From Pseudobdellovibrionaceae bacterium (GTDB taxonomy: Bacteria; Bdellovibrionota; Bdellovibrionia; Bdellovibrionales; Bdellovibrionaceae): 60,263 nt of DNA. Positions 12,205 through 57,290 of the stretch are shown one piece after another (position 1 is the stretch's first letter; each line of letters opens with the position of its first letter). The DNA is taken from contig JAYTTH010000316.1 in the NCBI GenBank assembly GCA_043745515.1, forward strand, positions 1-60,263, read 5' to 3'. Position numbers and translations under genes: made by a program. The notes beneath the pieces are model-generated. The model saw only the letters and a list, made by a program, of their open reading frames with translations, ran no database searches and had not been told where the DNA came from.

Positions 12205-12601
12205 TTACAGAGCGGCTTCGATGGCTTTAATTATAGTAGAGTCATCGGGCATCAGGTTGAACAACAGTTAGAAAACGATACAACGGATGCTGGCCTTTGC
12301 CCTTTACCACTATTTTTTGGAACATTGTAAACTTCACTCCAAAATTCAGTGTGCAAAATTCTAGAATTTCAGCGTTTGAGCCAGGCTCCTGACCTTCGAA
12401 TTCATTTGCAGGAAATCCTAACACTTCAAATCCTTTTTCTTGATACGATTCAAATATCTTTTCTAGCGCTTCATATTGAGGAGTTAGTCCACATTTTGAA
12501 GCCACGTTCACGATAAGGCAGACTTTGCCCTTAAATGAAGAAAGATTTGTTTCTTGCCCGTTGATTTTTGGTGCCGCAAATTCATATATTGTTTGGTTTA
12601 T
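12205..12601 (-). pseudogene. glutathione peroxidase pseudogene
   Basis: Reading frame INQTIYEFAAPKINGQETNLSSFKGKVCLIVNVASKCGLTPQY...HPLYRFL. ATA occupies the start position behind GAGGAA. There is no ATG/GTG/TTG upstream of the internal GTG at 12511. The WNF(T/E)KFL segment is absent. The C-terminal PDDSTIIKAIEAAL* lies in another frame. Confidence 0.7.
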
Positions 12602-12996
12602 AGATTCCTCGCTTTTTAAGAATTTATCCTAAATTAGGGACCAGCAAAGTTCCAAGGAAATTGAATGAAAATGCTAAAGTACTTTAGTTTATTTAAATCG
12701 AGTGTAGACTCAGAATGCTAAAAGGTTTTTAATGAAAGCGTATTCATTGTTGTTTATATATATTTTATTTTTAGGCTCCCATTGCTTTTCTGAAGAAAAA
12801 AAGACAGATTTTTTTCGAAACCCTATAAAAAAATGTCTGTCCAGTTAACCTGCCCTTGAATTCAATAAAGTTAAGGTGGTGAAATGATGATAATGTCCAA
12901 TGCTGAATTTTACAATATGGAACGCTGGCAATGCCTTCTCCGCTATTTCAGCTACCGACACCATTTGGGATTTTTTTAATCAGTAAGAAAATTTTC

Positions 12997-13893
12997 CTAT
13001 TGAAACAATGGCTTCAGTTTCGATTCTATAAAAGTAGAAACTTCACGCACTTTTCGGGACAACATACGCTGTGGCGGATAAACAAGATGTATCGGAGCCT
13101 CCTCTAATCCCCAGCTGGACAATACAGTCACAAGCTCTTTGCTTTCCAAATACCGGGCAGTCATGGAACTTGGCAACAAAGTGATTCCAAGTCCTGCTTT
13201 CGCCAACGCCAGAGCCATACCTTTGTGATTGATTTTCCAATTGGGATTGAATTCAACTTTCTCTTTTCGAGTTCCATTGGTTACTAGCCATTCATTTCGG
13301 TGACTGTTGGGTCCGAGTGGTGAAAAAATGCAACGGTGTTTTGTTAGATCACTGGGTTTTTTGGGTGTTCCAAATTTTTCTAAATATCCCGAAGATGCTA
13401 CAAAATTAAAAGACGATTTTCCTAAAAATTTTGCCTTTAAAGTGGAATCTTTTAGTTTTCCGCCACGAATTCCAATATCGGTCTCGGTGCGAACTAAATC
13501 AACATAGCCGTCGGTTAGATTCAAATCGAATTCTAAGCCGGGATGTAAAACACTCAATTCCGCAACAATGGGCGCTAATAAAACTTGACCAAAATCCTCG
13601 GGGGCTGTGATTCGAACAATACCCGTGAGTTCCTCGCTATCATTGGAAATATTTTTCTCAAGACCTGAAATTTGCTGAATAATCGGCTGCACATCTCGAA
13701 AAAGTTTTCGTCCGGCAGCGGTGACTTGAAACGAGCGAGTGGTCCTCAATATCAAGTGTTGTTTAAGATCTCTTTCCAGTCGCACCATAGCGCGACTCAC
13801 TCGGGATACGGGCTGTTTTAATCGTGCGGCCGCTTGGGTCATCGAGCCCGCTTCGACTACTGCTACAAAGGTATTTAACAGATTTAAATCCAC
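12997..13893 (-). CDS. LysR-family transcriptional regulator
   Basis: N-terminal wHTH MDLNLLNTFVAVVEAGSMTQAAARLKQPVSRVSRAMVRLE plus a LysR substrate-binding domain. Divergent from the DoxX gene. Confidence 0.9.
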   Translation of the reverse strand: MDLNLLNTFVAVVEAGSMTQAAARLKQPVSRVSRAMVRLERDLKQHLILRTTRSFQVTAAGRKLFRDVQPIIQQISGLEKNISNDSEELTGIVRITAPEDFGQVLLAPIVAELSVLHPGLEFDLNLTDGYVDLVRTETDIGIRGGKLKDSTLKAKFLGKSSFNFVASSGYLEKFGTPKKPSDLTKHRCIFSPLGPNSHRNEWLVTNGTRKEKVEFNPNWKINHKGMALALAKAGLGITLLPSSMTARYLESKELVTVLSSWGLEEAPIHLVYPPQRMLSRKVREVSTFIESKLKPLFQ

Positions 13894-14008
13894 TAGGACT
13901 CCTATTTTTCTATTTATGCAAAAATGATTACTGATTTTGTCTACTTTTGCAAATCACTTTTTAAGGAGATACTCATATCAGTTAAAACACTTTTTTCGGA
14001 GGTAATTT

Positions 14009-14455
14009 ATGAGTGCATTAAAGAAAATTCTAAATACAACAGAGGCCTATGGACCGTTAGTAGCGCGTTTGGCTTTGGGACTGGTGATTTTCCCACATGG
14101 AGCACAGAAACTATTGGGCTGGTTTGGTGGCTATGGCTTTGAAGGCACGATGGGGTTTTTTACATCCCAAGGCATGCCTTACATCGTCGCCCTCTTGCCA
14201 ATCATAGCTGAATTTTTTGGCGCCCTGGGTTTAATTACTGGTCTATTTACCCGAATAGCTGCCTTTGGAGTCGGCTTCACAATGTTGGTTGCGGCTCTGA
14301 TGGTTCACTTGCCCAATGGTTTTTTTATGAACTGGTTCGGGCAGCAAAAAGGCGAAGGCGTCGAGTATTTCATTTTGGCTATTGGCCTTGCCATTAGCTT
14401 GATTATCACAGGCGGTGGAAAGCTTTCCGTCGATGGGGTATTAGCTAAAAAGTGA
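14009..14455 (+). CDS. DoxX-family membrane protein
   Basis: LVARLALGLVIFPHGAQKLLGWFGGYG signature with four TM segments. Confidence 0.8.
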   Translation: MSALKKILNTTEAYGPLVARLALGLVIFPHGAQKLLGWFGGYGFEGTMGFFTSQGMPYIVALLPIIAEFFGALGLITGLFTRIAAFGVGFTMLVAALMVHLPNGFFMNWFGQQKGEGVEYFILAIGLAISLIITGGGKLSVDGVLAKK

Positions 14456-14470
14456 TTCCATTAGTTTCAT

Positions 14471-14505
14471 AAAAAAGGATTTAGAAAAATTCTAAATCCT
14501 TTTTG
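14471..14505. terminator. bidirectional intrinsic terminator
   Basis: AAAAA-AGGATTTAGA-AAAAT-TCTAAATCCT-TTTTG is a perfect 10-bp stem flanked by an A-tract and a T-tract. It lies between the convergent genes ending at 14455 (+) and 14527 (-). Confidence 0.8.
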
Positions 14506-14526
14506 TATTGTTTTTATTTTTCCGAA

Positions 14527-15723
14527 TTAGTCTGCGTTAACGTTAACTGTTGTAAAAGTAGCTCCAGCAAAACCAGTTATCCAAGTCGATGCGGCAGTGT
14601 AGGAACCCCCAGTAAGCAAAAAAGCAACAGATGAGGTCAAGCCGGTGTTACCGGCACCACAAGTTGAAGCTGTATCAGAGCCGCGAATATAGCAGTTGGT
14701 ATTTGTAGTTTCTGGCCAATTTGCTATTGTTTGCACTTGAACTCGCGTTGTGGGGCTTCCACCAGATCCATTTGTTGCACTCCAAAGTCGTGCTTTAATT
14801 CCAGATGTTAAATTTCCCGCTGCTGTAATCAAAACCCCGCCAGGACCAGATTGTCCAGGGGCATCTTGAATATTTGAATACCCAAACGAAATGCTTTCGA
14901 TGTCGCCAAGAGTTGATCCATTTACTGCTAAATCAGCGTACAACTTAATATGGCGATTCCATCCGCAACTACCACTTTCTGTGCAATCAATGCGCTCCAT
15001 TCTGGCTTCATATCGTAATTCACCTGTAGCGCTATCAAGGGAGCCATAGGTAGTGCCTCGTTTAGTCGTGCTTTGATCTTCATATGAAGCAAATTCAGCT
15101 TTCGTTCCCGAAATTTTCGTAGCCACTTTGTAAGTTCCAAAACTAGGAACATCGATTGATATCCCGCTGTCAAAATAAGTATTAAAGGCGGCTGGTTTAG
15201 AGGCCGTCGCTGTCACTGTCATCGTTCCAGCACCAATATTAGAAATTTGAGTAGCTGTAAAACAGGTCGCATTGACAGCCATGGAAATTGAATGGGCAGC
15301 TCCATCAAATGTTAGCCCCGCGTTTTCCAATGCACACGAAATGCTTTTAACCATGGCAAACCCGCCTTGAATGGTATCAGGAGATCCATCATTCACGGTC
15401 ATTTTGCAATACGCCATCGTGCCTGGATAACCACCTTGGGATTGATTCAAACTGCCCGGTTGACCATGAGTGTCGCACGCGGACGCACTTAGAAAAGGGT
15501 GTAGTTCGTTGTCACCCTGAACACTAGCAGTTCCAGTCCCACCTAAACTTCCACCCGTTGTTGCGACCGCTGCTGAAATGCTGGTCATAATTCCGGACGG
15601 CTTGTCAGAACTTAATGTTGTTCCAGCGGTTGTAGCTGCGGGGTCACTATTTTTTTTGCAAGCCACTCCAGCAATTATTAAAACACAGAGTGCTACTATT
15701 CGAATTTTATTTGAACTCGTCAT
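14527..15723 (-). CDS. Gly/Thr/Ser/Ala-rich lipoprotein, function unknown
   Basis: Signal peptide with lipobox IIAGVAC. Low-complexity G/T/S/A-rich mature part with several Cys pairs. No domain recognised. Confidence 0.7.
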   Translation of the reverse strand: MTSSNKIRIVALCVLIIAGVACKKNSDPAATTAGTTLSSDKPSGIMTSISAAVATTGGSLGGTGTASVQGDNELHPFLSASACDTHGQPGSLNQSQGGYPGTMAYCKMTVNDGSPDTIQGGFAMVKSISCALENAGLTFDGAAHSISMAVNATCFTATQISNIGAGTMTVTATASKPAAFNTYFDSGISIDVPSFGTYKVATKISGTKAEFASYEDQSTTKRGTTYGSLDSATGELRYEARMERIDCTESGSCGWNRHIKLYADLAVNGSTLGDIESISFGYSNIQDAPGQSGPGGVLITAAGNLTSGIKARLWSATNGSGGSPTTRVQVQTIANWPETTNTNCYIRGSDTASTCGAGNTGLTSSVAFLLTGGSYTAASTWITGFAGATFTTVNVNAD

Positions 15724-15907
15724 GGGTTCTCCTTTGATTTATAAGAGGATATCCCCCGTTATTTTATTGTCAAATCAAGGACCCTTAATAGCCTAGTCCT
15801 GCGGATTTCGCTCGAGCTAATGGTCTAGGTAACAACCCACTGTGCCGTCTTGCCTAGGGGCCTTTCATTCTGTCACAATTAGCCTTCAACATTAGGAGAT
15901 TTATTCT

Positions 15908-16354
15908 GTGACCAACAAAAAAAAATACAATGGCAGCTGCCATTGCGGAAAAGTTAGATTTCATGTTTTCTTAGATCTTTCAACAGGCACGGGTCGCTGC
16001 AACTGCACGTTCTGTACTAAAACTCGCTACTGGGGAAAAATGGTAAAACCCGAAGAATTTGAGTTACTTTCTGGCTCTGACTGTTTGACTGACTATACAA
16101 AAAGTACACCTTTAGTTTTTCATAAAAGTGATTACGTCGAAGACAACACTAGCCACCATCTATTTTGTAAACACTGCGGAGTTCGATCTTTTGGCAAAGG
16201 CCATATTCCCGAGGTTGGCGGCGAATACTATTCTGTAAATATCGCTTGCCTGGATGATGTAGATTTTAAGGAAGCGATGGCAGCGCCTATTCAATACTTT
16301 GATGGGCGAACCAATAATTGGTTTTCCACACCAGATTACACGAGCCATTTGTAG
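15908..16354 (+). CDS. GFA/CENP-V family protein (glutathione-dependent formaldehyde-activating-like)
   Basis: GSCHCGKVRF, CNCTFC and CKHCG zinc-binding Cys clusters. GTG start with AGGAG upstream. Confidence 0.75.
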   Translation: MTNKKKYNGSCHCGKVRFHVFLDLSTGTGRCNCTFCTKTRYWGKMVKPEEFELLSGSDCLTDYTKSTPLVFHKSDYVEDNTSHHLFCKHCGVRSFGKGHIPEVGGEYYSVNIACLDDVDFKEAMAAPIQYFDGRTNNWFSTPDYTSHL

Positions 16355-16370
16355 TGAGCCTATTTAGCTG

Positions 16371-17660
16371 ATGTCAAAAATATTTAAACATCTCTATTTT
16401 TGGGTTTTGTTTGCCATAGTTCTTGGCGCGACAATAGGCCTAATAGATCCAGAGACAGGTGAAAAACTTAAACCGCTGGGCGAGGGATTTATTTCATTAG
16501 TCAAAATGATGATCGCGCCTATTATTTTTTGCACAGTAGTCACCGGAATTGCCGGCGCGGGTGATATGAAAAAAGTTGGTCGAATAGGCTTTAAGGCCCT
16601 TCTTTATTTTGAAATCGTTTCAACTCTAGCACTTGCGCTTGGACTAGTGATTGCGAACCTTCTTAAACCCGGCCAAGGGTTTAACGCTTCCCTCACAAGC
16701 TTAGATACAGTTGCAACTAACAGCTTTACTCAGACCGCCTCGCACCTATCTACGATTGATTTTATCATGCATATCATTCCCAAAACATTTTTGGATGCGT
16801 TTACAGGATCGGGCGATTTATTGCAGGTGCTATTGATTTCGGTCCTTTTTGGCTGGTCCTTAAATTCAGCCGGTGAAAAAGGAACTTCGATTTTGAAATT
16901 AATTGAATCCATCTCTGGAATTTTATTTTCTATGATCAGCGCGATTATGAAACTCGCGCCAATTGGAGCCGGCGGAGCCATGGCCTATACTATTGGAAAA
17001 TTCGGATTAAAATCACTGCTCCCACTTGCCTTTTTGATGGGTTGTTTTTATCTTACATGTTTTTTGTTTGTAACAGTTATTTTAGGCATGGTCTGCAGGC
17101 TGGCTGGTTTCAGTGTTTTCAAGTTTCTTCGCTATATACGTCAAGAACTGCTATTAGTCTTAGGCACCTCGTCTTCAGAAAGTGCCCTCGTTCCACTTAT
17201 GAACAAATTAGAACGCCTTGGTTGTAAAAAAGCGGTTGTTGGATTGGTCGTTCCAGCGGGATATTCTTTTAATTTAGATGGCACAAATATCTACATGACA
17301 TTGGCCGCACTATTTATTGCTCAAGCATTCAATATCGATTTATCAATTACTCAGCAGCTTAGTATATTAGGGGTTGCCATCATTACCTCCAAAGGTGCAT
17401 CTGGTGTTACAGGGGCTGGCTTTATTACTTTGGCGGCCACTCTGGCCGTAGTTCCCGAAGTGCCAGTTGCTGGAATGGCGTTAATATTAGGTGTCGATCG
17501 TTTTATGTCTGAAGGTCGTGCTCTTACCAATATTATAGGAAATGGAATTGCCACTTTAGTTGTTTCTAAATGGGAAAATGAATTGGACCATGCCCAACTG
17601 GATCGGGAACTTTCGCTAAAAAGCGATCTCGGGTTGGGCGATCCGATTTACAAAATCTAA
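16371..17660 (+). CDS. dctA: dicarboxylate/amino acid:cation symporter (C4-dicarboxylate transporter DctA-like)
   Basis: N-terminus [19 protein letters not shown] parallels DctA. DAACS-family motifs [13 protein letters not shown] and [12 protein letters not shown]. Confidence 0.8.
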
Positions 17661-18620: not shown

Positions 18621-18623
18621 AAA

Positions 18624-20288: not shown

Positions 20289-20459
20289 TTAAATCTCCAA
20301 ATCTAATCGTTCACCATCAAAGAAAGAAACCCCTCTCGCGGCGTGAGGCTTTCCGTCACGCTCTGCATTTTATTTGAAAGTTGCGACTCTGCCCATAGTA
20401 ATATATTGAATGTGGCGAATTACTCGTTTTGCAAAATCTGAGATAGTCATTCTGATCAT
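20289..20459 (-). pseudogene. relic of an MGMT/alkyltransferase-like (YbaZ/Atl-type) gene
   Basis: Minus-strand frame M(IR)MTISDFAKRVIRHIQYITMGRVATFK*NAERDGKPHAARGVSFFDGERLDLEI*. It fits the iP.GrV.TYG.iA...G.P.aARaVG signature. There is an in-frame TAA at 20370-20372, and the relic stops before the PCHRV active site. Confidence 0.5.
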
Positions 20460-21543: not shown

Positions 21544-21549
21544 ATCCCT

Positions 21550-23350: not shown

Positions 23351-25139
23351 ATGAAAAGTTTGTCTTTAACTCTACTTAAAAATGAAACCGTTCGATCTGC
23401 AAAACGATTTCCCGTGACCTTTCTTTTTGTTTTAATAGCCACGGCCACTCTTATAACAATGAGCGAAATGCATTTCAAATTCAACGAAGGGCATCCTCTG
23501 ACTGAACATGCTCGTTTTAATTCTGGCTTTCCCGATTTCATTGGCCTTTCATCTTATTGCAGAGAGCAAGCCTAAATGGCTTGCTGTGCCTTCAAAGTGG
23601 GTTCCCTATTTATCTTTTATTCCATTGCTCGCTTTTTTTAGCTGGAGGCAAACCCACTATGGCGCGGGGGAATGGATTCGCTACTTTCACTGGGTACTTT
23701 ATAGTCATCTTCTGGTTGCGTTTGCTCCATTTTTGCGGGTCTCAAACTCGCGAGAATTTTGGAACTTCAACTACTCACTATTTATTAATTTTCTAATTAG
23801 TCGATTTTTTGGATTATTTCTTTGGGCCGGTTTTAGTTTAGCGCTGGCGGCCGTGGGAGCGCTGTTAGAGATACCTATATCATCGGAAATCTATTTCAAT
23901 TTATCCTCACTATGCCTAGTTTTAATTTCTACGCTTCATTTTTTGGCCCTGATGCCTGAATCAATCAATTTTGATGAAGTACGGCCAAGGCTATTAAAGA
24001 TTTTCTGCCAATATATATTGGTTCCACTCAACGTCACCTATATCGCCATTTTATATATTTATTTAATTAAAATTCTGATTACTGGTGATTGGCCAAAAAG
24101 AATGATTTCATGGTTGGTGTCTGGTGTTTCCATACTGGGAGTTTTTGCGCTTTTGATGATGGCGACCTTTTTTGACCAATATGAAACCCGGTGGATGAGA
24201 AAATTCCAATCCATCTACTATATAAGCATAATTCCGTTGCTAATTATGGGGCTTGTTTCTCTTTTTCAACGAATTGACCAATATCGATTGACCGAAAAAC
24301 GTTATGCTTTAATTGCTTTAAGTCTTTGGCTCATTGGAATTGCAGTTTACAATTTGATCTCAAAAGCAAAAAATATTTTAGCAATTCCAGTTTCGCTATT
24401 TATTGTATTATTGTTCACATCTTATGGTCCCTGGGGAATGTATCAAATGTCCTAGCTGAGTCAAAAGTCACGACTAGTAGAACTACTAGAAAAAAGTGAC
24501 GCCATTAAAAACGGATTTTTAGGCAAAAGCAGCAAAGATATTTCGCCGGACGACGCAAAAGAAATTATTCAAATTTTAGGCTATTTGGTATACTTTCATG
24601 GTTCAGAACCCCTTCCCTCGTTTTTTACCAAAGAAGATGCTGCTGAATTAGTTAGAATCTCAAAAAAAGATTCAAGCTACTTGATCTACGACGAAGTAGG
24701 TAATTTTATGGAAAAGCGACTTGCCTTACCACACGGCCTTTACCTAAACAAGGGCGATGATCTTTCAAAATATGTTTATTATGATAACCAAAATTGCATG
24801 GTTCAGTTAAGTAAAGATTTACTATTTTTTAGATTTGATTCGGGACACGTAATCTATCCTTCAGTTGGCACGGGGAAATCTTACGAATTGTTCATAAGCG
24901 ATTCAAATTTTACCATCCAACTAAAAGAAAACGGAAAAGTCATTTTTGACCACGATTTAAAGTCTTTCGTAGCGGAAATAATGGATTTGGATTCCGAGCA
25001 AAAGAGCATTGCTTGGACATTTAATGCTCAAGGCCTTGAAGTAACACTCATCCCGCAGCACATTTCTGCCGACAACTACGCAAAGGGGCTTAGAAACCTA
25101 TCGTTTACAGGCTCTCTTTTGGTACGATTTTTAAAATAA
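23351..25139 (+). pseudogene. DUF4153-like polytopic membrane protein, disrupted
   Basis: The N-terminus MKSLSLTLLKNETVRSAKRFPVTFLFVLIATATLI is in frame 2, and the body (23508-24455) is in frame 0, so a frameshift lies near 23480-23510. An in-frame TAG at 24453-24455 is followed by 43 stop-free codons that run into the 24585-25139 ORF in the same frame. Confidence 0.65.
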
Positions 25140-28144: not shown

Positions 28145-28699
28145 ATGATGGCCAAATTACTTTTTACATTATTAATTTTGGCCACACATTCACTTTGGGC
28201 AATGCCCGCTCAAATATTGCTAATGAGGCATTGCGAAATACCTCTCGTCTGAAATGAACTATCCCCCCAAGGGTGGCGACGAGCTCAAGCGCTACCGACA
28301 CTTTTTGTTCGACCTGAACTGCGAAGGTTTGGCTTGCCAGTGGGTCTTTATGCAATGGCCCCCTCTCATCCTGGCGGCTCTATTCGCGCTATTCAAACTT
28401 TGTCTATCACTTCTAAAGCTTTAAACGAACCTATCAATGCTCAGTTTACTAAAGATTTAGTTCCTCAGTTAGTGGCCCAAATAAAAAACAATTCTGCTTT
28501 CAATGGAAAATTTATTGTGATTTGTTGGGAACATACAGTGCTTTTAGAAATAGCACGAGAATTTGGCTTGCCTAACCCTCCGGATTGGCCAGATCCTCAA
28601 TTCGATCGAATGTGGAATATGAATTTTTCTCCGCAAGGACAGCTAACTGGGTTTCAAAATTTACCAGAACGCCTTTTACCAACTGATAATCCAAAATAA
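28145..28699 (+). pseudogene. histidine-phosphatase-superfamily protein interrupted by an in-frame TGA
   Basis: MMAKLLFTLLILATHSLWAMPAQILLMRHCEIPLV-TGA-NELSPQGWRRAQALPTLF... is continuous in one frame. It has a signal peptide and an RH(C)E catalytic motif, and LSPQGWRRAQAL fits the LS..G..RA..L motif. TGA is at 28250-28252. Confidence 0.65.
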
Positions 28700-29200: not shown

Positions 29201-29785
29201 CTAATTTGAGCCATTCTGCATTTCCTTAACACTATTTAAATTCGTTCGAAAACGTCTCACTAAGGACGGAATAACCATCATAGCCACCATAATAATCACC
29301 GCCGCCCAAGTGCCATCACCCAATATATTATTCAACCAAATTGTAGAAGCCATAACAACCCCAAAGAAAAACATATCCCCCAAAATGGCAATCGCCCATC
29401 CAGATATAAAACCGTGTCCAGCAGCCATAGCGGCCGCACGACCAGTCATTGGGTCAACTCCAAATGCAATTGTGACAAGTAAAAATGGTCCCGGCTTGGA
29501 ACCATAACCGGATATAGTTCGCGAAGTCGATTTTTTAATAGCGTCACCCAGGTTAGCTAAAAATTTCGACCGTTTACTTCCATATATAAAGAGCATCATT
29601 AGTGGTTCAAATAAAAATGCCAGAAGAATATCGGACACAAAATAAAGTAGCAACATCGACATCCATCCAATCCCTTTGCTCTGCGCCAATACCACTCCGG
29701 CGGGTATCCCCCCGCCAATAGGAATTACAAAAAGCAAAAAGACGTCCCACGCATTTGTTAATGAACTGAAAGAAAACGCATCCAT
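29201..29785 (-). CDS. polytopic membrane protein (possibly COG2426 small-multidrug-export-like)
   Basis: Four to five TM segments. IPIGGGIPAGVVLAQSKGIGW resembles the family motif. The family assignment is tentative. Confidence 0.55.
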   Translation of the reverse strand: MDAFSFSSLTNAWDVFLLFVIPIGGGIPAGVVLAQSKGIGWMSMLLLYFVSDILLAFLFEPLMMLFIYGSKRSKFLANLGDAIKKSTSRTISGYGSKPGPFLLVTIAFGVDPMTGRAAAMAAGHGFISGWAIAILGDMFFFGVVMASTIWLNNILGDGTWAAVIIMVAMMVIPSLVRRFRTNLNSVKEMQNGSN

Positions 29786-48183: not shown

Positions 48184-48471
48184 TCAAAATCGGGCGGAAA
48201 TGTTACAATATAATAAATAGGCGGCACAACTTATCAATACTGAAAAAGTAAGCGCCATTCCTGTCACTCGATATTTGAAATTTTCTTTTTTTTGGCTCAA
48301 TCCAAAGGCGTGAAGAATTCGACCCAGAACTAAACAAAGACCTTAAAGATGAATAAATAAAGGATGATCCTTTTGTTGCTCGACCAAAAAAATCATCAGC
48401 AGTGCAAACGGCGTATATTCAGAAAAATTAGAATGCACGCGCATTGCGCGTAGCATTTTTGCATTAGTTCC
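48184..48471 (-). pseudogene. 5'-truncated MAPEG (YecN-like) gene relic with in-frame TAA
   Basis: Frame AKMLRAMRVHSNFSEYTPFALLMIFLVEQQKDHPLFIHL-TAA-GLCLVLGRILHAFGLSQKKENFKYRVTGMALTF...*. RVHSNFSEY and RILHAFG are MAPEG motifs. TAA is at 48343-48345. The N-terminal 35-40 aa or so are missing. Confidence 0.6.
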
Positions 48472-48476
48472 CTACC

Positions 48477-48956
48477 TTATGCCTTGTCGAAGGCCATTTT
48501 CAATTTCTTAATATCAAGCTTAATCATTTTCCACATTTCTGCTGTCATGGCTTCCTTTTTAGCTTTGTTTTTCGTGGTGTTCCACTGATCAAACGCTGCT
48601 GGTACAATCTGCCATCTGACTCCGAATTTGTCGATCAGCCAACCGCACTGAACGGGTTTGCCGCCACCAGCCACTAGTTTTTTCCAATAGAAGTCTATTT
48701 CGCGTTGGGTTTTGCAAGGGACCACAAATGAAATGGACTCGTTGAACGGCATTTCAACAAAGCCATTCAAGAGCATTAGCTTTTGACCCAAAATTGTTAA
48801 ATGCGCGGTCAGTACCGAACCCTCCTTGACGCCCATAGGGTTCTTGCCCCAATAGGAAAAAGCCCCTACTTTTGTCCCTTTGAAAACAGATTTATAAAAT
48901 TTCACCATTTCAGCAGCGCTACTATTAGACCAAACGCAAGCATATGATTTTATCAT
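48477..48956 (-). CDS. VOC-superfamily protein, PhnB-like (3-demethylubiquinone-9 3-methyltransferase domain)
   Basis: CGWLIDKFGVRWQIVP is the hallmark C-terminal motif of this family. Confidence 0.75.
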   Translation of the reverse strand: MIKSYACVWSNSSAAEMVKFYKSVFKGTKVGAFSYWGKNPMGVKEGSVLTAHLTILGQKLMLLNGFVEMPFNESISFVVPCKTQREIDFYWKKLVAGGGKPVQCGWLIDKFGVRWQIVPAAFDQWNTTKNKAKKEAMTAEMWKMIKLDIKKLKMAFDKA

Positions 48957-49120: not shown

Positions 49121-49714
49121 ATAGAAAAATTTGATCGACAATTCTACACCGCTTTCGACGGCCATAAGTTAATTGCTCAAGGTGCCTTGGATGAAGTCGT
49201 GCTAAAAGTTAAAAAAAGACAGCTTTCCCATCCTCAAGCGGCTGTGCTTGTATTTAGTGACTCGACAGGAAAGCAAATGGATTTTGATCTGCGCGGTTCA
49301 GACAAAGAAATCCTACAAAGACTTGAAACGTTCATCGCGCCAAATATGAAATCACCACCGACCGCCGGTCCTGGGCGCCCCAAGCTAGGTGTGGTCGCAA
49401 GGGAAGTTTCCCTATTGCCCAAACACTGGGAGTGGCTTTCCACACAATCCGAAGGAGCTTCTGGAACAATCCGCAGATTAATTGACTCCGCTAGGTCTTT
49501 TACAACCCCGGCAATCCGGCTAAAGCAATATCAAGAAAGAACTTACAAATTTATGGAAGCCATCGCCGGAAATCTACCTGGCTACGAAGAAGCACTTCGC
49601 GCGTTGTATTCAAAAAACAAAACAAAATTTAGAGACCATATTTCTGCTTGGCCACAAGACGTTAGGGCCCACGCTATCGAGCTAGCAAATCCAGTATTTG
49701 AAACTGAAAAGTAA
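49121..49714 (+). CDS. DUF2239-family protein (apparent ATA start)
   Basis: GPGRPKLGVVAREVSLLPKHWEWL and a YTAFDGHKLIAQGALDEV N-terminus. The frame is open from 49100. GAGG lies 6 nt before ATA 49121. The first canonical start (TTG 49187) would remove the conserved N-terminus. Confidence 0.6.
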   Translation: MEKFDRQFYTAFDGHKLIAQGALDEVVLKVKKRQLSHPQAAVLVFSDSTGKQMDFDLRGSDKEILQRLETFIAPNMKSPPTAGPGRPKLGVVAREVSLLPKHWEWLSTQSEGASGTIRRLIDSARSFTTPAIRLKQYQERTYKFMEAIAGNLPGYEEALRALYSKNKTKFRDHISAWPQDVRAHAIELANPVFETEK

Positions 49715-49773
49715 TTTACTTGGATAGGCATTTTGATAGTGTATTCTAAAATTTGGTGAAAAACAGGGACAAT

Positions 49774-50973
49774 ATGTCAGTTATAAATGATCGCTTTCTA
49801 AAATGGCTCAGCGCTGGAGCCGGTATAATCTTGGGTGGCATTTTATTATTTGGAATTGATTACTATCCGGTTGCAGTGGATTTTTTAAATCGTATTCCAG
49901 ATCAAAACCAAGAAAAATTTTTAGATATGCACACTCATGTTGCTTGCCTTGGCCCCGACGTTCCTGTCGAAACAGACTGTTACGTATCGCCTGATATGCG
50001 TAGTAGCTACAAATTTTCAATTTATCTAAAAGCGTTTGGGATGACGGAAGAGTCCTTAAAAACCGAAGGCGGCCTTGCCATTTTTGATCATTTAGCTGAA
50101 AAAATCCAATCGTCCCAGCGGATTAAAGCCGCGGTAGTTTTGGCAATGGATGGATTTGTTAATCGCACCACTGGAGCTTTGGATTGGCAAAATACACAAA
50201 TCTATGTTCCCAATGAGTTTGTACTCAAAGGTCTTAAAGACAAACCACGAGGCGTTTTTTATTTTGGCGCCAGTGTGAATCCGTATCGCAAAGATGCGCT
50301 TCAACGCCTAGTGCAAATGAAAAATGAAGGTGCGGTTTTAATTAAGTGGATTCCTTCTATTATGAATATTGATCCGGCCGACCCGCAATTGATAGAGTAT
50401 TATAAAAAACTGGTTGAACTGGACTTGGTGCTTCTAACCCATACAGGACGCGAATTAAGTTTTTCAGGGGCCAAGGATGAACTATGCGATCCCCTGAGAT
50501 TAAAATTGCCACTCAGTTTAGGAGTTAAAATCATTGCGGCTCATGTGGCAACAACCGGTGAAAATCAAAACGAATCTGATTTTTCAAGACTTTCAAAACT
50601 GATGGACGAACCCAAGTATAAAGATCAATTGTTTGCGGATATTTCCGCAATCACTCAATTTAATCGAATTAAAATGTTAAAAGGAATTTTAAAAAATCCC
50701 GTGTTTAAAGGGCACCTAGTGAATGGCACAGATTGGCCCTTGATTGAAGTCAGTGTGGGTATCAACTCTAGCTTGAGTTTAAATTTAACGCCGTATCACT
50801 TATACAATCTGCCCTTCTTGAATCTTGGACTTGATAGTTCACAAATTAGGATTTTAGATTCTATTTCTAACACATTTGATCGTGACGTTCGAATGAAAGA
50901 ATTTTATGGAGTTACAACTGAGATCTTTGGTCTTGCTGAAAAAATTCTAACGCTACCAAAAAACCCGTATTAG
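49774..50973 (+). CDS. amidohydrolase-superfamily (TIM-barrel metal hydrolase) protein with N-terminal TM
   Basis: LDMHTHVA (HxH metal motif), LLTHTGRE, IIAAHVATTG. The ORF is open from TTG 49753. Confidence 0.6.
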   Translation: MSVINDRFLKWLSAGAGIILGGILLFGIDYYPVAVDFLNRIPDQNQEKFLDMHTHVACLGPDVPVETDCYVSPDMRSSYKFSIYLKAFGMTEESLKTEGGLAIFDHLAEKIQSSQRIKAAVVLAMDGFVNRTTGALDWQNTQIYVPNEFVLKGLKDKPRGVFYFGASVNPYRKDALQRLVQMKNEGAVLIKWIPSIMNIDPADPQLIEYYKKLVELDLVLLTHTGRELSFSGAKDELCDPLRLKLPLSLGVKIIAAHVATTGENQNESDFSRLSKLMDEPKYKDQLFADISAITQFNRIKMLKGILKNPVFKGHLVNGTDWPLIEVSVGINSSLSLNLTPYHLYNLPFLNLGLDSSQIRILDSISNTFDRDVRMKEFYGVTTEIFGLAEKILTLPKNPY

Positions 50974-51559: not shown

Positions 51560-51562
51560 TTG

Positions 51563-51591: not shown

Positions 51592-51651
51592 AGTAAAGTT
51601 CGATGTCGGAGGGTGGATTTTAGGGAAATACCTCTTGAAACTTCAAGTTGT

Positions 51652-52503
51652 TTAATCACGCCCGCGTACAGCTTTCGAAAAAGCAAACAACAATAGAAGC
51701 GCACATGCCATCATGGCCGCGCCGGCAAGCTGATGTGATGATAAAGATTCACCTAAAAAAATAAAAGCTCCCAGAATGCCAAAGACGGGTTCGCTGTACT
51801 GACCCAATAGATCTAGCTGCATGTTCTTTCTCAAAGCATAAGAATGTGCAAAAAAAGCCGACGGTAAAAGAAGTGCTAAACTAATTGTCGATCCTACTGT
51901 CGCCGTATTCCAACCATTGCAGTTAATCGATCCTTTCGTTAAAGCAATCAATGCAAATACAAAAAAAGAAAGAGTGTTGGTCGTTGCGCTAATTTCGATA
52001 TCGCTTAATTCAGTCTGCCAATTGTGAATGATCCATGTGAAAAAAGACCAGGTCAAAATACTTCCAAACAACGCCGTTAAGCTTAACGAGCTCACTTGAG
52101 AGGCCGAAAAAAAATCCACAAAAATCAAAGTGCCTAAAATAGCTAAGCTGCAAATAATGAAAATTCGAATTGAAAAGTGAACCCTCATAACAAAAAGACT
52201 TATCACCGGACAAAGCGCGTAAAAGAAAACATACCAACTCACAGGCACAGCTTTCAACGCGAAGACTTGAAAGTAGTAATGGATTGAAATCGTTCCGATA
52301 CCCATCAGTACGTAAGAAATCTTCAAGCGGCGTATTTTAGAAATCGCTTTGTAAAGAAACGGAAGAAAAAACAACGAAGATAGACCTAACCGAATCAATA
52401 AAAAACTAACTTCGTCAATATTTTGAAGGCCGATCTTCGCTAAGATTGGAGACAAGCCCCATACCAAATTAGCAAACAGCACGGCCAATACAGAAAAATT
52501 CAT
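51652..52503 (-). CDS. DMT-superfamily (EamA-like) transporter
   Basis: Ten TM segments in two EamA-like halves. The start forms an ATGA overlap with the upstream ATP-grasp frame. Confidence 0.8.
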   Translation of the reverse strand: MNFSVLAVLFANLVWGLSPILAKIGLQNIDEVSFLLIRLGLSSLFFLPFLYKAISKIRRLKISYVLMGIGTISIHYYFQVFALKAVPVSWYVFFYALCPVISLFVMRVHFSIRIFIICSLAILGTLIFVDFFSASQVSSLSLTALFGSILTWSFFTWIIHNWQTELSDIEISATTNTLSFFVFALIALTKGSINCNGWNTATVGSTISLALLLPSAFFAHSYALRKNMQLDLLGQYSEPVFGILGAFIFLGESLSSHQLAGAAMMACALLLLFAFSKAVRGRD

Positions 52504-53693
52504 ATTGTCTCCGATGGCAAAGCATAAAATGCTTTTTGCTTTCCTTGCGACGTAGCCATTTGAATCGATTCAAGATATTGTTTTACGGCCACTGGTGAAC
52601 CCGAAACAATTCCAATCCAAGACCAATTGTCTTTTCCCATAGCCGGAACAGTATTTCCGAAATCTAAGATTTGTGTTACGAATACATCTTTTTTTGGACT
52701 TGAATCTAAATTTAAGAACATTGATTCTTCTTTTAAACCATGGCAACAGAGATTGACATCTGGGGCTGATGATTCCAAAATTCGCCGATTTCTTTTTCGG
52801 GAAATAGCGTGATTTTAAGAACTTCAGTGAATATGTCCACAGGCGAAGCGTTATAGGCCGAAGATAAAATTTCACCGATTCCGCCACCGCCCAATCGACC
52901 TAAATTGGCATCGATCACAAAAGCTTCATTTTGATTGACCATCAGCTCGATATGAAAAAAAGCATTTTGAATTTCACTAGCCTTAATCAAATCAAATACT
53001 TTTTCATACGCTTGATTCTTAGTCGTAACGGCCAAACGATGTTCATAAGGAAATCCCGCCCAACTTTCGGTGTTTAATATCTTACGGCGACCCGTGCATC
53101 CTAAAATTTGGGCTTCTCCATTTCGTACAAAACCTTCGAGGCTAACAAGTTCTCCAGAAATATAAGCCTGAACCATCCATTCATCAGGCTGCAGATGATT
53201 TGGAATCTGCAAATTCTGAATGTGCTGGCTATAAATTTCAACTGATTGCTCCGCATTTACAATGCAAACCCCGATGCCTCCGGCCGTACACCGCGGTTTA
53301 AAAATAACCATTCCATATTTTTTTCTGAAATCCTCAATCTGCTTGAGTGGAATTCTATTTTTATTAAAGCTGAGCGAGGGAGGGCCTAGAATCCAAACCC
53401 CGCACCTTTAATGCTTGCGCAAGCTCGACAACCAGGTGAAGTCGAGAATCCAGAAATGTAGTTACAGCTTCAATCATCCAAACTTGAGCACAAATAAAGC
53501 AAAGCATTTCAGATACCGAGGTTGTATTTATATCGAAGTAATCAAATTCTTGAATTTGCTTCAAGGTATCGCTTTGATAGTTTTTTATCTCGACTAGAAA
53601 AACAGGTTCAAAACCAAGATTTCTAATCGAATTTCCCGAATAGCGGGCACCAATATCGGATGTTTCAACTACAATTATTTTTTTTCGACTCAT
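52500..53693 (-). pseudogene. ATP-grasp ligase gene split by two frameshifts
   Basis: Pre-ATP-grasp N-terminus (53364-53693, MSRKKIIVVETSDIGARY). ATP-grasp core in a different frame (52733-53311, MVIFKPRCTAGGIGVCIV ... FHIELM ... IDANLGRLGGGG). The C-terminal part returns to the first frame (52500-52778). Shift windows are about 53366-53407 and 52733-52815. Confidence 0.65.
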
Positions 53694-53715
53694 ACGAGCT
53701 CCTCGTGGTTAAGAT

Positions 53716-54069
53716 TTAAAACAGGATGAAATTGCGGAATTTCTGGAAGATAAGAACAACTCGAAAAAACTTTTGCAATGAAGGATCTAAACTAAAACCT
53801 TCTATTTGATTCCATTGCACTTTTGTTTTCATCCATTCGAGTACAAGCGTGTCTTGAGCTTCACGGGTCGTCTGCATAAGTACTTTTTTTCCTAAACTTT
53901 CAATTTCAGTAGAAATTTTATTATAAAATTTAGGCAGGGCCTTGATGTATAAATTCCATTTTGATCCATCGACTTGAAAAATACTAAATTGATTTAACTC
54001 GTTCCAAAGATAGGCTGAAATCCAAGAGTCATTATCCTGATTGATCCAGGCCGGATGACTTTTCGTCAA
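53716..54069 (-). CDS. hypothetical protein (possibly N-terminally truncated by an in-frame TAA)
   Basis: 117-aa ORF from a TTG with no Shine-Dalgarno. The same frame continues upstream through TAA (54106-54108) to ATG 54150, which is preceded by GAGGGA. Confidence 0.45.
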   Translation of the reverse strand: MTKSHPAWINQDNDSWISAYLWNELNQFSIFQVDGSKWNLYIKALPKFYNKISTEIESLGKKVLMQTTREAQDTLVLEWMKTKVQWNQIEGFSLDPSLQKFFRVVLIFQKFRNFILF

Positions 54070-54343
54070 ATGGAGATTTCCGTGTAGACGAAAGCTTCTT
54101 CGCTTTTATCGAAGATTCTCGCGAATTTCTAATAATAATGTGTGGCCCATAGTCCCTCGCAAATAGTTTCGAGAGGGTTAATTTCAAGTTTTAGGCCAGT
54201 CTTTTTTCGGCTAGGATCGAATACAATAATAGATGACTAACTTTCATTCCGAATTTCGAGAAAGTTCGTTTTAATTTTAGGAGTTTTAAGGAAATCAATT
54301 TAGCACGAAAGTGTTACCGATGTCTTCGGCACAGACCCAGGGA

Positions 54344-54359
54344 AAATGGTGGAGACGAA
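54344..54359 (+). repeat. core repeat copy 1 (AAATGGTGGAGACGAA)
   Basis: Shares the exact 11-mer AAATGGTGGAG with copies at 55497 and 57252, all in the same orientation. The reverse complement reads ...CTCCACCATTT, resembling a CCA-encoded tRNA or tmRNA 3' end. Confidence 0.8.
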
Positions 54360-54396
54360 GACTCAGAAGTCGAACCCGTGATTCATCTTCGAATCG

Positions 54397-54819
54397 TTAT
54401 TTAATTTCAAGCTGTACAGATGGATATTGCTCTTCGTAATTTTCACCGTCACATCCAAAATACGTGACCGTTCTTTTGGAAAAATCGACATCATAACTTA
54501 CGACTCCAGCTTTCCAAGTGGCCGCCAAAAATTCAGGAAATGTACTTTTCCCTGCCTTATCAATTCGTAGTGCATGAATGAGTGCTTCACGATCAAAATT
54601 TGAAACGTCAAATGTGCCTAAAGCGAGAGGTTCTCCCTGCATAACAACAGGACCTTCTTCTGTTAAAAACAAACTCTGACAAGACGGAAGTGACCAAATA
54701 TTTCGAGTCACACCAGATTGCCGCATGACCTCCGCCAGGTAAGGAAATCCACCTATCTTTGGTCGAATCTTAATTGCAAGCTTTTGTGCTTCTAGCAAAT
54801 TCGCAATCGCTTTACTCAT
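54397..54819 (-). CDS. DUF1398-family protein
   Basis: GGFPYLAEVMRQSGV, TFPEFLAATWKAGVVSYDVDF and TVTYFG match the DUF1398 pattern. Start at MSKAIANL. The ORF is open to 54846. Confidence 0.7.
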   Translation of the reverse strand: MSKAIANLLEAQKLAIKIRPKIGGFPYLAEVMRQSGVTRNIWSLPSCQSLFLTEEGPVVMQGEPLALGTFDVSNFDREALIHALRIDKAGKSTFPEFLAATWKAGVVSYDVDFSKRTVTYFGCDGENYEEQYPSVQLEIK

Positions 54820-54897
54820 ATCAGCCGACCTTTCATTAAAAACCAAGTTCTAAACTGCGGGAACTCTTGAGGACGACCCGAGTTCTCAAACTCTGAA

Positions 54898-54908
54898 TTT
54901 GGTGGAAG
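54898..54908 (+). repeat. degenerate copy of the core repeat (TTTGGTGGAAG)
   Basis: Matches the AAATGGTGGAG core at 9 of 11 positions. Lies between the DUF1398 and DUF1772 genes. Confidence 0.35.
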
Positions 54909-55023
54909 TGTATCCACTGAACCTTACTGCTTTAAATTACAAATTTGACTTACTGTCGGGGCAAAAATAAGTCAATCTGAGCTCGGCTTTTTGAACGCTA
55001 TATGCAGGAAAAATAGGAACTTA

Positions 55024-55455
55024 TCAACTAAGAGCCCAAACAAAAATACTCGTAGCGAAGATACCAAGAATCGTTCGCACAGCATGTAACTTTCCCCAAT
55101 GCCGAATGAGATCAACAGTAGTTGAATTGATCTCGGCTTCTTTAGTTGCAAGAAGTTTTTGATTCGTGGGCATGATAACAAGCAGAGTATAGGGCCAATT
55201 TGCAAGAATAAGAACTGCGCCAAAAATCCAACGCCAGTCCTGTGATTGAGTGTAGGCATAGATACCTGCTAAGCCAGAAAGCACAGCTAAAGTGGATTGC
55301 ATGATAAAGCCACTTTTGTAGCTAGGCGCCCATTGTTTTAAAAGCTGCTTAGGTTCCAAGTTCAGACGAGCAGGCTGCTCAGCGAAATTTATGTAGAATG
55401 CAGCACCAGCAAAAAGGGCAGCGAAAACCAATGCGAATAACCCAGCTAAAATCAT
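55024..55455 (-). CDS. DUF1772 (anthrone-oxygenase-like) membrane protein
   Basis: FAGAAFYINFAEQPARL and four TM segments are typical of DUF1772. Confidence 0.75.
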   Translation of the reverse strand: MILAGLFALVFAALFAGAAFYINFAEQPARLNLEPKQLLKQWAPSYKSGFIMQSTLAVLSGLAGIYAYTQSQDWRWIFGAVLILANWPYTLLVIMPTNQKLLATKEAEINSTTVDLIRHWGKLHAVRTILGIFATSIFVWALS

Positions 55456-55496
55456 ATTTCTCCTTAAGAAATGCCTTACGCTGTAAAACGTGAGAC

Positions 55497-55512
55497 AAAT
55501 GGTGGAGGCTGA
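55497..55512 (+). repeat. core repeat copy 2 (AAATGGTGGAGGCTGA)
   Basis: Exact 11-mer shared with copies 1 and 3. Lies 42 nt upstream (minus sense) of the DUF1772 start. Confidence 0.8.
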
Positions 55513-55637
55513 AACAGTCCACTAAAGCTTTGAAACTATTGAGCATTTAAAAGTGCCCATATACCGCACCCTATATTCCAATCAGTGCCTCAAAATATGA
55601 TCTAAAATCAATCCTATTTCCGCTGAGTCAGCCTTGG

Positions 55638-55668
55638 TGAAAAATGACATTATTATTGAAAAATGTCA
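55638..55668 (+). promoter_or_regulatory. direct repeats TGAAAAATG(A/T)CA x2 upstream of abiEi (operator candidate)
   Basis: Copies at 55638-55649 and 55657-55668. Together they also contain the inverted pair TGACAT...ATGTCA. They lie 22-52 nt upstream of the AbiEi start. Confidence 0.45.
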
Positions 55669-55689
55669 AATTATACCGAATAATAAATC

Positions 55690-56271
55690 ATGACTACTGC
55701 ACAGCAATCGAAACTAAAAAAACTTGGACCATTTTCAATCGCACAAGCGAAAGAAATCGGCATCAGTCAGCAAGAGCTTTCCCTACTGGTCAAAGAAGAT
55801 AAAATTATTCGAATGGAGCGAGGGATTTACCTGCACCCTGAAGCAGATAAATCGAGAGAGCTTGATTTTAAAATCGCTTGTGCGAAATTTGGTCCCAAAT
55901 CTGCGGTCGGAGGACTATCAGCCCTTTTCTATTATAATCTAGCCGATCAAGTCCCGCAGCAAACTTGGGTCATAGTTCCGCCCAACAAGCGGGTGATTTC
56001 CAAAAACTACCGCCTTATTCGCACAAAAACCCCTCTAAAACACGGCATCATCGAAGGTGACAGGTTCCGCATAGTCTCTATTGAAAGATCTATTGTAGAG
56101 GGCTTTAAGCTCGCCAGTAAAATCGGCGAAAGAACAGCGATCAAGGCAGCTCGCACCGCCATCCAACAAAAACTCACAACGCTGAATAAAATTGGAAAAA
56201 TGGCAAAAAACCTTGGTCTGGATTCAAGCCTCACTAAATACTTCGAAGTGATCATTGGGGCCATATCATGA
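55690..56271 (+). CDS. type IV toxin-antitoxin system AbiEi-family antitoxin/transcriptional regulator
   Basis: N-terminal wHTH-like FSIAQAKEIGISQQELSLLVKEDKIIRMERGIYLHP is typical of AbiEi. ATGA overlap with the downstream toxin frame. Confidence 0.75.
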   Translation: MTTAQQSKLKKLGPFSIAQAKEIGISQQELSLLVKEDKIIRMERGIYLHPEADKSRELDFKIACAKFGPKSAVGGLSALFYYNLADQVPQQTWVIVPPNKRVISKNYRLIRTKTPLKHGIIEGDRFRIVSIERSIVEGFKLASKIGERTAIKAARTAIQQKLTTLNKIGKMAKNLGLDSSLTKYFEVIIGAIS

Positions 56272-57064
56272 CAACAAAATCAAAAGGCGAATCCATACGA
56301 ACAAAACTGACTAAACTCTCGGCGAAACTTGGCGTCAGGTATGAAAATATAGTGACAGTTTTTTGATCGAGCGATTAGTCGCTAGATTTATTTCAGATAA
56401 ATCATTGGCAAGCCATCTTGTTTTCAAGGGTGGATTTGTCGGCTTGAAGATTTACGAATCACCAAGATACACCGTGGATCTAGACGCTTTGCTGGTAAAA
56501 TCCAATATCGAATCCACTTTAAAACTTGTAAAAGAAAAAGCAGAGTCCGATTTAAATGATGGTGTATGGTTTCGCTTTGAAAGTCAGGTCGATCTAGCGA
56601 CACAAGGTGAAGTTCTAAAGAATCTTCAAAAAGCACAGATTGTTCATTTTGATTTGGGTATTGGTGATCCAATTACTCCCGCTCCCCAACAAGAAAAAAC
56701 GTCATCACTGCTAAGTGAAAATTAAGAAATCAGTTGGTCAGTTTATTCAATTGAAACTATTTGTGCAGAAAAGCTTCATGCACTGATTTCTCACGGCGAT
56801 CAAAACTCTAGATCAAAAGATGTTCATGATCTTGCGATATTTTTACCGAAAGCCGACGGTAAAGTTCTCAAGGAAGCGATTACAAAGTGTTTTGCTTTTC
56901 GCAAAACTGATGTGCCGCCAAGCTTTTTAAATGTCTTGAAAAAACTTGATACCACAAGACTTGAAAAAGGATGGGCCAGTGCCGTTGCGTCAGTTCATGA
57001 GGCTTCAAGTTTTAAAGCGATGTTTAAAACTGTGCTGGATCAAATTTCTGGTTGGGAAAGCTAA
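56268..57064 (+). pseudogene. AbiEii/DUF1814 nucleotidyltransferase toxin, disrupted
   Basis: MTTKSKGESIRTKLTKLSAKLGVRYENIVTVF is followed by a frameshift in a T6 run (56359-56364). It continues LIERLVARF...LVFKGGF...RYTVDLDAL...FDLGIGDPITP. An in-frame TAA at 56723-56725 is followed by YSIETICAEKLHAL...NSRSKDVHDL...* in the same frame. Confidence 0.75.
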
Positions 57065-57131
57065 AGTCTTACAAACCGCCTGTAAGGGATTCGATTAATT
57101 CCTAAGCCACTTTTAAAATATATTTTATTCC

Positions 57132-57290
57132 TCATTGATGACACCAGTCTTCAGCCGCCTTTTTCTTTAAAGCGACATTGGGATCGTCCTTAAGGTGGCT
57201 TCCCTTAATTTCGACAAGCTCTAATTCTGCTTGATTTTTTCTTCGCACAAAAAATGGTGGAGGCGGAGTCGCCTTCGTAACTCGTTGATA
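57132..57290 (-). pseudogene. start-less relic resembling the C-terminal PD-(D/E)xK nuclease core of a restriction/helicase-type protein
   Basis: Frame YQRVTKATPPPPFFVRRKNQAELELVEIKGSHLKDDPNVALKKKAAEDWCHQ*. The (Y)TP..F.V ... lvEiKG ... K..aa..W pattern fits. There is no start codon apart from an internal GTG. Confidence 0.3.
57252..57267 (+). repeat. core repeat copy 3 (AAATGGTGGAGGCGGA)
   Basis: Exact 11-mer shared with copies 1 and 2. The reverse complement TCCGCCTCCACCA would give a G3:U70-type acceptor arm, but no T-arm or 5' half is present. Confidence 0.8.

Follow-up and report, generated by a model that had tools for sequence, protein, structure and literature searches.

Dense gene damage on one contig of a Pseudobdellovibrionaceae genome probably reflects mostly young pseudogenes of dispensable genes

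Does a contig on which about one gene in six is broken tell us that a bacterial lineage is losing its genes, or can such a density arise locally in an otherwise ordinary genome? The question is raised by contig C316 (GenBank JAYTTH010000316.1) of an uncultured Pseudobdellovibrionaceae bacterium, which we analysed over its whole length of 60,263 bp and refer to as the window. It is the longest contig of its metagenome-assembled genome (MAG; GCA_043745515.1, here G000) and carries 13 damaged or vestigial loci among approximately 71. A first-pass annotation of the same DNA had counted eleven damaged loci among about 80; all eleven proved to be broken or vestigial, and an esterase and a Rieske-FMN reductase fusion were added to them. 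From the comparison with related genomes we consider it probable that these loci are genuine, mostly young pseudogenes and remnants of dispensable genes, concentrated here through the content of the contig. They would lie so densely on one contig because it joins a fast-evolving accessory neighbourhood (1–51.5 kb) to a strain-specific island of defence and accessory genes (51.5–60.3 kb).

Lesions and their ancestral state

G000 comprises 3.81 Mb in 536 contigs (N50 10 kb, completeness 83.7%, contamination 1.9%); congeners are designated G001, G004, G005, G006 and G009. The nearest relative is G005 (MAG GL72_DN_metabat_174_sub, Pseudobdellovibrionaceae), with a DNA identity of about 85%. Positions 1–29,741 of the window are collinear with contig C63 of G005 and positions 29,745 to about 51,530 with its contig C85; the remaining 51.5–60.3 kb are without counterpart in G005. 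Among the sampled G005 contigs, six of 2.7–28 kb are 100% identical to contigs of G000 (Table 1), in five pairs over the full, equal length, whereas C168 and C97 are of equal length and were compared over 18 kb. G000 and G005 were therefore binned from a single metagenome assembly and overlap; they are not mutually exclusive genomes. They have technology, assembler and error profile in common, so that a contrast in gene damage between the two does not reflect a contrast in data type. Since these public MAGs overlap, comparisons of their completeness, contamination and gene content are not independent.

G005 served as the intact reference for most loci, G006 and G009 for the AbiEii gene, and homologues from Logan or databases for the ATP-grasp ligase gene and the gene upstream of it. 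Intact G005 orthologues exist for gpx, the esterase, the MGMT-like gene, the DUF4153 gene, a secreted protein with an RHGE motif, the Rieske-FMN_red fusion, the MAPEG gene and the DUF2239 gene. At every comparable locus the gene is intact in G005 or in other congeners, and the lesions are thus derived. The six in-frame stops listed by the first-pass annotation, namely TAA at 20370, TAG at 24453, TGA at 28250 and TAA at 48343, 54106 and 56723, lie exactly where it placed them and in the frames it gave (the TAA codons at 20370, 48343 and 54106 on the minus strand), and its two ATA pseudo-starts were likewise confirmed (49121, and 12599–12601 on the minus strand). The comparison with orthologous loci that it had proposed returned intact genes in relatives and CAG, TGG, GGA and TTA as the ancestral codons of the first four stops.

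In total, 20 lesions were catalogued in 11 of the 13 loci: eight point substitutions, four indels of 1–2 bp and eight deletions of 42–750 bp. Substitutions do not make up most of the lesions, as had been supposed, since deletions equal them in number; one of the four small indels was seen within a homopolymer run. The lesions are strongly clustered. Two or three independent lesions, differing in kind, have accumulated in each of seven genes, and length-weighted random placement of 20 lesions would hit 16.9 genes rather than the observed 11 (P of 11 or fewer = 0.0002; 200,000 simulations). Such clustering within genes points to genes that died and then drifted, not to random base-calling error.

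The broken genes retain low ratios of nonsynonymous to synonymous substitution (omega) relative to G005, between 0.06 and 0.23 at a median synonymous divergence (dS) between the species of 0.65. The low omega values suggest that purifying selection acted for most of the divergence and that the lesions are recent; relaxation of omega toward 1 cannot be isolated in these values, because the branch after inactivation is too short relative to a dS of 0.65.

A course of events that would fit this picture begins with a redundant or unneeded gene being disabled by a new stop codon, the loss of its start codon, a small indel or a deletion through slippage at microhomology. The disabled gene would then drift, gain further lesions and be trimmed by the usual bacterial deletion bias. 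Neighbours within an operon or module would decay jointly, with gpx and the esterase, the RHGE protein and the beta-propeller fragment, the 361-aa protein and the ATP-grasp ligase, and AbiEii and the TnsA-like remnant as candidate pairs. Given this damage in adjacent pairs and operons, the number of independent decay events would be nearer seven than thirteen. Our inference is that the natural population carries the lesions in fixed form, that the genes have lost their function through them, and that selection lapsed through redundancy or disuse.

The contig against the rest of the genome

The damage was compared in both directions on about 0.5 Mb of G005 (approximately 11%), for open reading frames (ORFs) of at least 100 aa and with shared contigs and contig edges excluded. 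In G000, 7 of 52 orthologues on the window are damaged as opposed to 8 of 214 (3.7%) elsewhere (Fisher P = 0.013). Under the background rate, at least 7 damaged of 52 would have a binomial probability of 0.003. One automatic call was rejected on inspection: the stop reported upstream of the DoxX-like gene (14009–14455) precedes the real ATG. Without this false alarm the count is 6 of 52 (Fisher P = 0.035), set against calls outside the window that were not curated like those on it. Several automatic 'stops' near N-termini were also discarded as products of over-long ORF starts in G005. The enrichment is inflated because the window was picked for looking dense. In G005, one of 49 orthologues is damaged on the counterpart of the window and 9 of 226 (4.0%) elsewhere.

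The neighbourhood is also weakly constrained. Compared with genes elsewhere, its intact genes have a higher median nonsynonymous divergence (dN; 0.058 vs 0.036, P = 0.0005), dS (0.72 vs 0.63, P = 0.0003) and omega (0.089 vs 0.060, P = 0.02). Their roles are in regulation, transport and hydrolysis: proteases, helicases, an RlmI-like methyltransferase, a GH1 enzyme, three histidine kinases, LysR regulators, MFS and CDF proteins and DctA are all encoded intact, and none of the window genes belongs to core translation or replication. As the first-pass annotation had observed, damage has struck accessory, stress and defence genes and spared the helicases, the kinases, DctA and the RlmI-like methyltransferase.

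Each broken gene is restricted to a clade, scattered in its distribution or has paralogues to back it up. The DUF2239 family occurs in 4 of 10 genus genomes, the Rieske fusion in 4 of 9 congeners, and DNA-level matches to the DUF4153 gene in 6 of 9 congeners. For gpx, the esterase and the RHGE protein, more distant paralogues with 32–51% identity exist elsewhere in G000, and with paralogues only this distant we rejected the idea that the window is a degenerating recent duplicate. We also dropped the notion that a loss of glutathione synthesis had caused gpx and the MAPEG gene to decay in a domino fashion: a GSH-S_ATP search gave weak or ambiguous ATP-grasp matches across the genus and none in G000, which is an incomplete genome.

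The same observations could be read as a recent, spatially confined burst of inactivation in one of two co-occurring sister species, marking an ecological split rather than chance. Under this reading the raised synonymous rate could stem from a late-replicating or mutation-prone zone, or from hitchhiking of the segment with an adaptive change, and the losses would amount to a coherent retreat from oxidative, alkylation and redox defences (gpx, MAPEG, the Atl/MGMT-like protein and the Rieske-FMN reductase). We regard such a burst as unlikely.

Quite unlikely, in our assessment, is the explanation offered by the first-pass annotation itself, in which the whole lineage relaxes selection on accessory functions under AT-biased mutation and the window is a representative sample of an eroding genome. 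It draws on the local density of 13 loci among approximately 71, on the 17% of ancestral coding length that lies in the 11 catalogued broken genes and on the overall rate of automatic damage calls, which is 15 of 266 in G000 and 10 of 275 in G005. It can also point to the mutation spectrum, since the six point lesions polarised by G005 amount to seven base changes, six of them G/C to A/T and one T to A. By the structure of the code, however, 47% of the single changes that lead to a stop are G/C to A/T to begin with (weighted by the codon usage of the window), and bacteria universally share a G/C-to-A/T mutational bias (PMC2936535, PMC2936529). The spectrum is compatible with this universal bias and shows nothing specific to the lineage. 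Third-position G+C (GC3) is 0.357 in G000 and 0.364 in G005 (86,909 aligned codons), and an AT-biased decay was not demonstrated.

Relaxed selection across the lineage fares no better. Damage outside the window is as frequent in G000 as in its sister, and ORF density is 92.8% both in G000 (85 contigs of at least 12 kb) and in the G005 sample, whereas the window, at 86.7%, is the eighth lowest of the 85 contigs. Matches to transposase families in G000 (three rve and two DDE_Tnp_1) are within the range of the congeners, although assembly into MAGs often collapses or drops such repeats. With damage rate, ORF density, GC3 and transposases all normal, there is no lineage-wide erosion, AT shift or expansion of insertion sequences (IS), and the window is a local outlier.

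Artefact and recoding as explanations

If the genes were intact in the cells, the lesions would have to come from the assembly or its consensus, through low coverage, strain mixing or mis-joins. The MAG is indeed fragmented (536 contigs, N50 10 kb) and 84% complete, its bin has contigs in common with another bin, and one small indel falls within a T run. Still, we consider an artefact very unlikely. In the sister bin, which stems from the same assembly, one orthologue of 49 is damaged in the syntenic stretch; the lesions are concentrated in few genes and spare the longest and conserved ones (P = 0.0002), and several kinds of lesion coincide in each of seven genes. There are deletions of 138–750 bp, and at one of the eight sizeable deletions the flanking direct repeat falls far below the length of any assembly k-mer. 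Frameshift-type breaks are rare elsewhere in G000 (1 of 214 orthologues). The highest omega values belong to the MAPEG and MGMT genes, both multiply damaged. The verdict of the first-pass annotation against simple sequencing error is supported by the multiple lesions per gene, the microhomology deletion and the clean sister.

Among mapped starts preceded by a Shine-Dalgarno (SD) sequence, an ATG has become ATA at 2 of 125 in G000, both on the window; when the comparison is reversed, the same change is seen at 1 of 114 in G005. Regular use of ATA for initiation was rejected on these low counts; here it is ordinary start loss, not an initiation signal. In E. coli, ATA initiates very weakly. Functional recoding by read-through, selenocysteine at TGA, programmed frameshifting or ATA initiation could appeal to the lone TGA and very low omega (0.06) of the RHGE gene and to the good SD before the ATA and the conserved N-terminus of the DUF2239 protein, yet it is extremely unlikely, as all three stop codons occur in frame and a reassigned code is thereby ruled out, the TGA stands for a glycine codon of the sister (GGA) and not for Cys or Sec, neither SECIS nor any further Rfam element was found on the window, most broken genes have large deletions too, and one of the two ATA starts belongs to an otherwise dead gene.

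Several points weigh against the reading of these loci as real and mostly young pseudogenes concentrated by the content of the contig. The lesions are known from one assembled consensus, and the genes with a single lesion and low omega, those for the RHGE protein and DUF2239, could be polymorphic, partly expressed or consensus errors. The search for an independent assembly of the species by exact-protein look-up of the neighbouring 406-aa methyltransferase gave no match, a pattern spanning the TAG/TGG site had no match in metagenome contigs, and the closest relative in a protein-based scan of metagenome contigs has 68% amino acid identity. None of the tested metagenome loci (L061–L064, L066, L070 and L071) has the neighbouring genes of the window. 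In addition, the syntenic stretch is weakly constrained as a whole, and its asymmetry, 7 of 52 in G000 vs 1 of 49 in G005, has a P of 0.06; weak constraint alone is insufficient for this asymmetry, and chance and the selection of the window must contribute. The background rates, finally, come from about 11% of G005 and from orthologues of at least 100 aa away from contig edges.

Individual loci, the island and known systems

The assignments of the damaged loci are collected in Table 1. Most family names proposed by the first-pass annotation hold by Pfam (GSHPx, the MGMT DNA-binding domain, DUF4153, MAPEG, DUF2239, ATP-grasp and AbiEii). Three had to be qualified: the 'histidine phosphatase' is recognisable by a motif only, the beta-propeller matches are below threshold, and the nuclease relic is part of a TnsA-like endonuclease.

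Table 1. Positions of damaged loci and associated features, with the basis of each assignment. Positions refer to the window unless a contig is given.
Feature	Position	Strand	Basis
Glutathione peroxidase (gpx) pseudogene	12205..12601	-	Pfam GSHPx 8e-41; alignment to G005
Esterase stubs, PHB-depolymerase-like alpha/beta hydrolase	12732..12986	+	G005 gene intact, 333 aa, Pfam Esterase_PHB 9e-11
MGMT/Atl-like DNA-binding relic	20289..20459	-	G005 orthologue intact, 123 aa, Pfam DNA_binding_1 9e-23
DUF4153 membrane-protein pseudogene	23351..25139	+	Pfam DUF4153; intact 612-aa G005 gene
Secreted RHGE-motif protein	28145..28699	+	Intact 184-aa G005 gene
YncE-like beta-propeller fragment, about 110 codons	28722..29058	+	Sub-threshold NCBIfam YncE / beta-propeller-repeat matches
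Rieske-only remnant, 152 aa	46277..46735	-	Pfam domains; tblastn pieces vs full-length congener orthologues
MAPEG-family membrane-protein pseudogene	48184..48492	-	Pfam MAPEG 2e-18; intact 133-aa G005 gene
DUF2239 gene with lost start	49121..49714	+	Pfam DUF2239 4e-70, domain from residue 9
ATP-grasp ligase pseudogene	52500..53693	-	Pfam ATP-grasp_4; single-ORF homologues of 406-416 aa, 70% and 51% identity
Pseudogene of 361-aa protein heading operon	53693..54150	-	Intact operon on Logan contig L143
AbiEi gene, intact	55690..56271		Pfam AbiEi_4
AbiEii toxin pseudogene	56268..57064	+	Pfam AbiEii 8e-26; intact 280-aa orthologues in G006, G009
TnsA-like PD-(D/E)xK endonuclease remnant	57132..57290	-	73% identity to residues 68-108 of 119-aa P0045
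TMEM175-family paralogues	5457..6062; 57385..58011		Mutually 52% identical
Intergenic element	57251..57384		Conserved 80-92% in several genus genomes
Intergenic element copies	G006:C35:1923-2056; G005:C85:27158-27246; G009:C9:63400-63440; G000:C168:27482-27563		
Contigs identical in G000 and G005	G000 C19, C26, C28, C36, C40, C168; G005 C7, C14, C15, C26, C28, C97		

The gpx gene, read as 181 aa in G005, has lost its SD-preceded ATG to ATA (12601–12599) and bears a frameshifting deletion of 149 bp flanked by the short direct repeats GATGCCC / GCCCGATGAC. With two intact, more distant paralogues elsewhere in G000, the broken copy is one of three. About 750 bp have gone from the adjoining esterase gene, which leaves a 5' stub with the signal peptide and a 3' stub. 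The MGMT/Atl-like gene combines a deletion of 138 bp with the change from CAG to TAA, and the DUF4153 gene a 2-bp deletion near 23506 with the change from TGG to TAG; the fragments of the latter have an omega of 0.10–0.18.

In the gene for the RHGE protein, GGA has become TGA and the motif itself reads RHCE. The protein has no Pfam or NCBIfam match. Of 10 genus genomes, G000 and G005 alone have it, and a paralogue with 51% identity lies on contig C98 of G000; judging by its omega, its lesion appears to be very young. The beta-propeller fragment that follows is startless, truncated at both ends and interrupted by one frameshift. Its 324 bp are missing from G005 at the same junction, and as no homologue was found among 40 other genomes of the family, the ancestral state is not polarised.

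The Rieske-FMN reductase fusion, full length in G005, G009, G004 and G001 (360–375 aa), has lost its FMN_red domain through an in-frame deletion of about 200 codons, and the remnant may still function as a Rieske ferredoxin. The MAPEG gene (omega 0.19) lacks its first approximately 30 codons in addition to the TTA to TAA change. In the DUF2239 gene, by comparison with G005, the SD-preceded ATG is now ATA, and the next usable start, TTG at 49187, would cost 14 residues of the conserved domain.

Gene content differs between the sister MAGs in further places of the collinear part. A 180-aa ORF (6119–6661) is without counterpart in G005, and a 181-aa ORF of G005 (G005:C85:1457-2002) is missing from the window between 31152 and 31391. 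G005 has a pseudogene of its own, in three pieces and two frames with one stop (G005:C85:20222-21148); it matches window positions 49753–50973, where a 406-aa amidohydrolase-like gene is intact, and is the one damaged orthologue of 49 counted for G005 in the syntenic stretch. The contig also has two TMEM175-family (potassium-channel-like) paralogues, one towards either end, of which the second is part of the island.

The island at 51.5–60.3 kb holds an AbiE module, with AbiEi intact and AbiEii broken three times, and the TnsA-like remnant. AbiEii has a 1-bp deletion within a T run, a 42-bp deletion and the TAA at 56723. The TnsA-like remnant keeps an ELVEIKG motif, but its YIPDF has decayed to PPPPFF and both ends are gone; its homologue P0045 matches Pfam Tn7_TnsA-like_N at 2e-12. 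An operon at 51652–54150 is made up of the genes for the 361-aa protein, the ATP-grasp ligase and an EamA exporter, of which only the exporter is intact. The ligase gene falls into three tblastn pieces in two frames, owing to a deletion of about 50 bp near 53385 (16 codons and a shift) and a 1-bp shift near 52745–52770, whereas its homologue P0001 is intact. For the first gene, tblastn recovers only residues 1–37, 242–337 and 312–361, in two frames; beside gaining its TAA, it has lost about 0.6 kb from its interior and is frameshifted close to the 3' end. The same three-gene operon is intact on Logan contig L143 (run SRR22388231), and ATP-grasp homologues occur in Bdellovibrio-like MAGs.

The island also contains a conserved intergenic element of about 90–130 bp. 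Its copy on contig C168 of G000 stands directly upstream of a gene for a putative P4-type integrase, as judged from the N-terminal sequence. The element contains the motif CTCCACCATTT, which resembles the 3' end of a tRNA or tmRNA; for neither the motif nor the element at 57.25–57.38 kb did ARAGORN or Rfam find a tRNA, tmRNA or Rfam identity. Over the whole window, which has a G+C content of about 40%, the same searches recovered neither a tRNA nor an Rfam family. The motif CTCCACCATTT occurs in three exact copies on the minus strand (54344, 55497 and 57252), all inside a 2.9-kb stretch of the island. If one mismatch is permitted, this 11-mer has four matches on the window, a number reached by 5 of 100 shuffles and thus barely above chance, and the count is a weak sign of serial integration scars.

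Annotations of this genome should mark the 13 loci on C316 as pseudogenes or remnants. Nothing follows for known mechanisms. The pseudogenes are of an ordinary kind and only locally dense, and the window may serve mainly as a calibration case: broken genes that lie densely on a MAG contig may be real and yet uninformative on the whole lineage, and a two-way genome comparison together with a genome-wide density check separates a local cluster from both erosion and assembly error.

Bacterial pseudogenes and their turnover are reportedly also the subject of work by Liu et al. in 2004 and by Lerat and Ochman in 2005. The loci described here resemble the unitary pseudogenes of free-living and enteric bacteria, which are specific to strains or species, mostly young and found in dispensable or redundant genes, and which arise by nonsense changes, frameshifts and deletions, erode further and make up a few percent genome-wide. 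The recent age of the lesions agrees with the rapid turnover that has been described for bacterial pseudogenes (Kuo and Ochman 2010, PMC2916853). Compared with the usual cases, the density is higher, with 13 of approximately 71 loci on one contig, and the host is an uncultured member of a family of predatory bacteria that is known from a MAG alone. Assemblies with long-read indel errors likewise show frames split into adjacent ORFs, as several are here; unlike in such assemblies, 1–2-bp indels make up 4 of 20 lesions with one in a homopolymer, the damage is confined to a few accessory genes, and long, core-like genes are intact.

Reductive evolution with mass pseudogenisation is known from Mycobacterium leprae, Sodalis glossinidius and Serratia symbiotica (PMC3056288). 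With these the window has in common neighbouring broken accessory and stress genes, several lesions in each and trimming by deletion, but its genome has a normal coding density, an ordinary pseudogene rate, no IS bloom and no AT shift. A further parallel is with decaying defence and mobile-element islands, such as orphaned AbiE systems whose toxin is inactivated. Here, too, AbiEi is intact, AbiEii is broken three times, a TnsA-like remnant is present, and the sister is without the island; the window differs in that it has kept neither an integrase nor a transposase, and in that ARAGORN and Rfam give its att-like repeats no tRNA identity.

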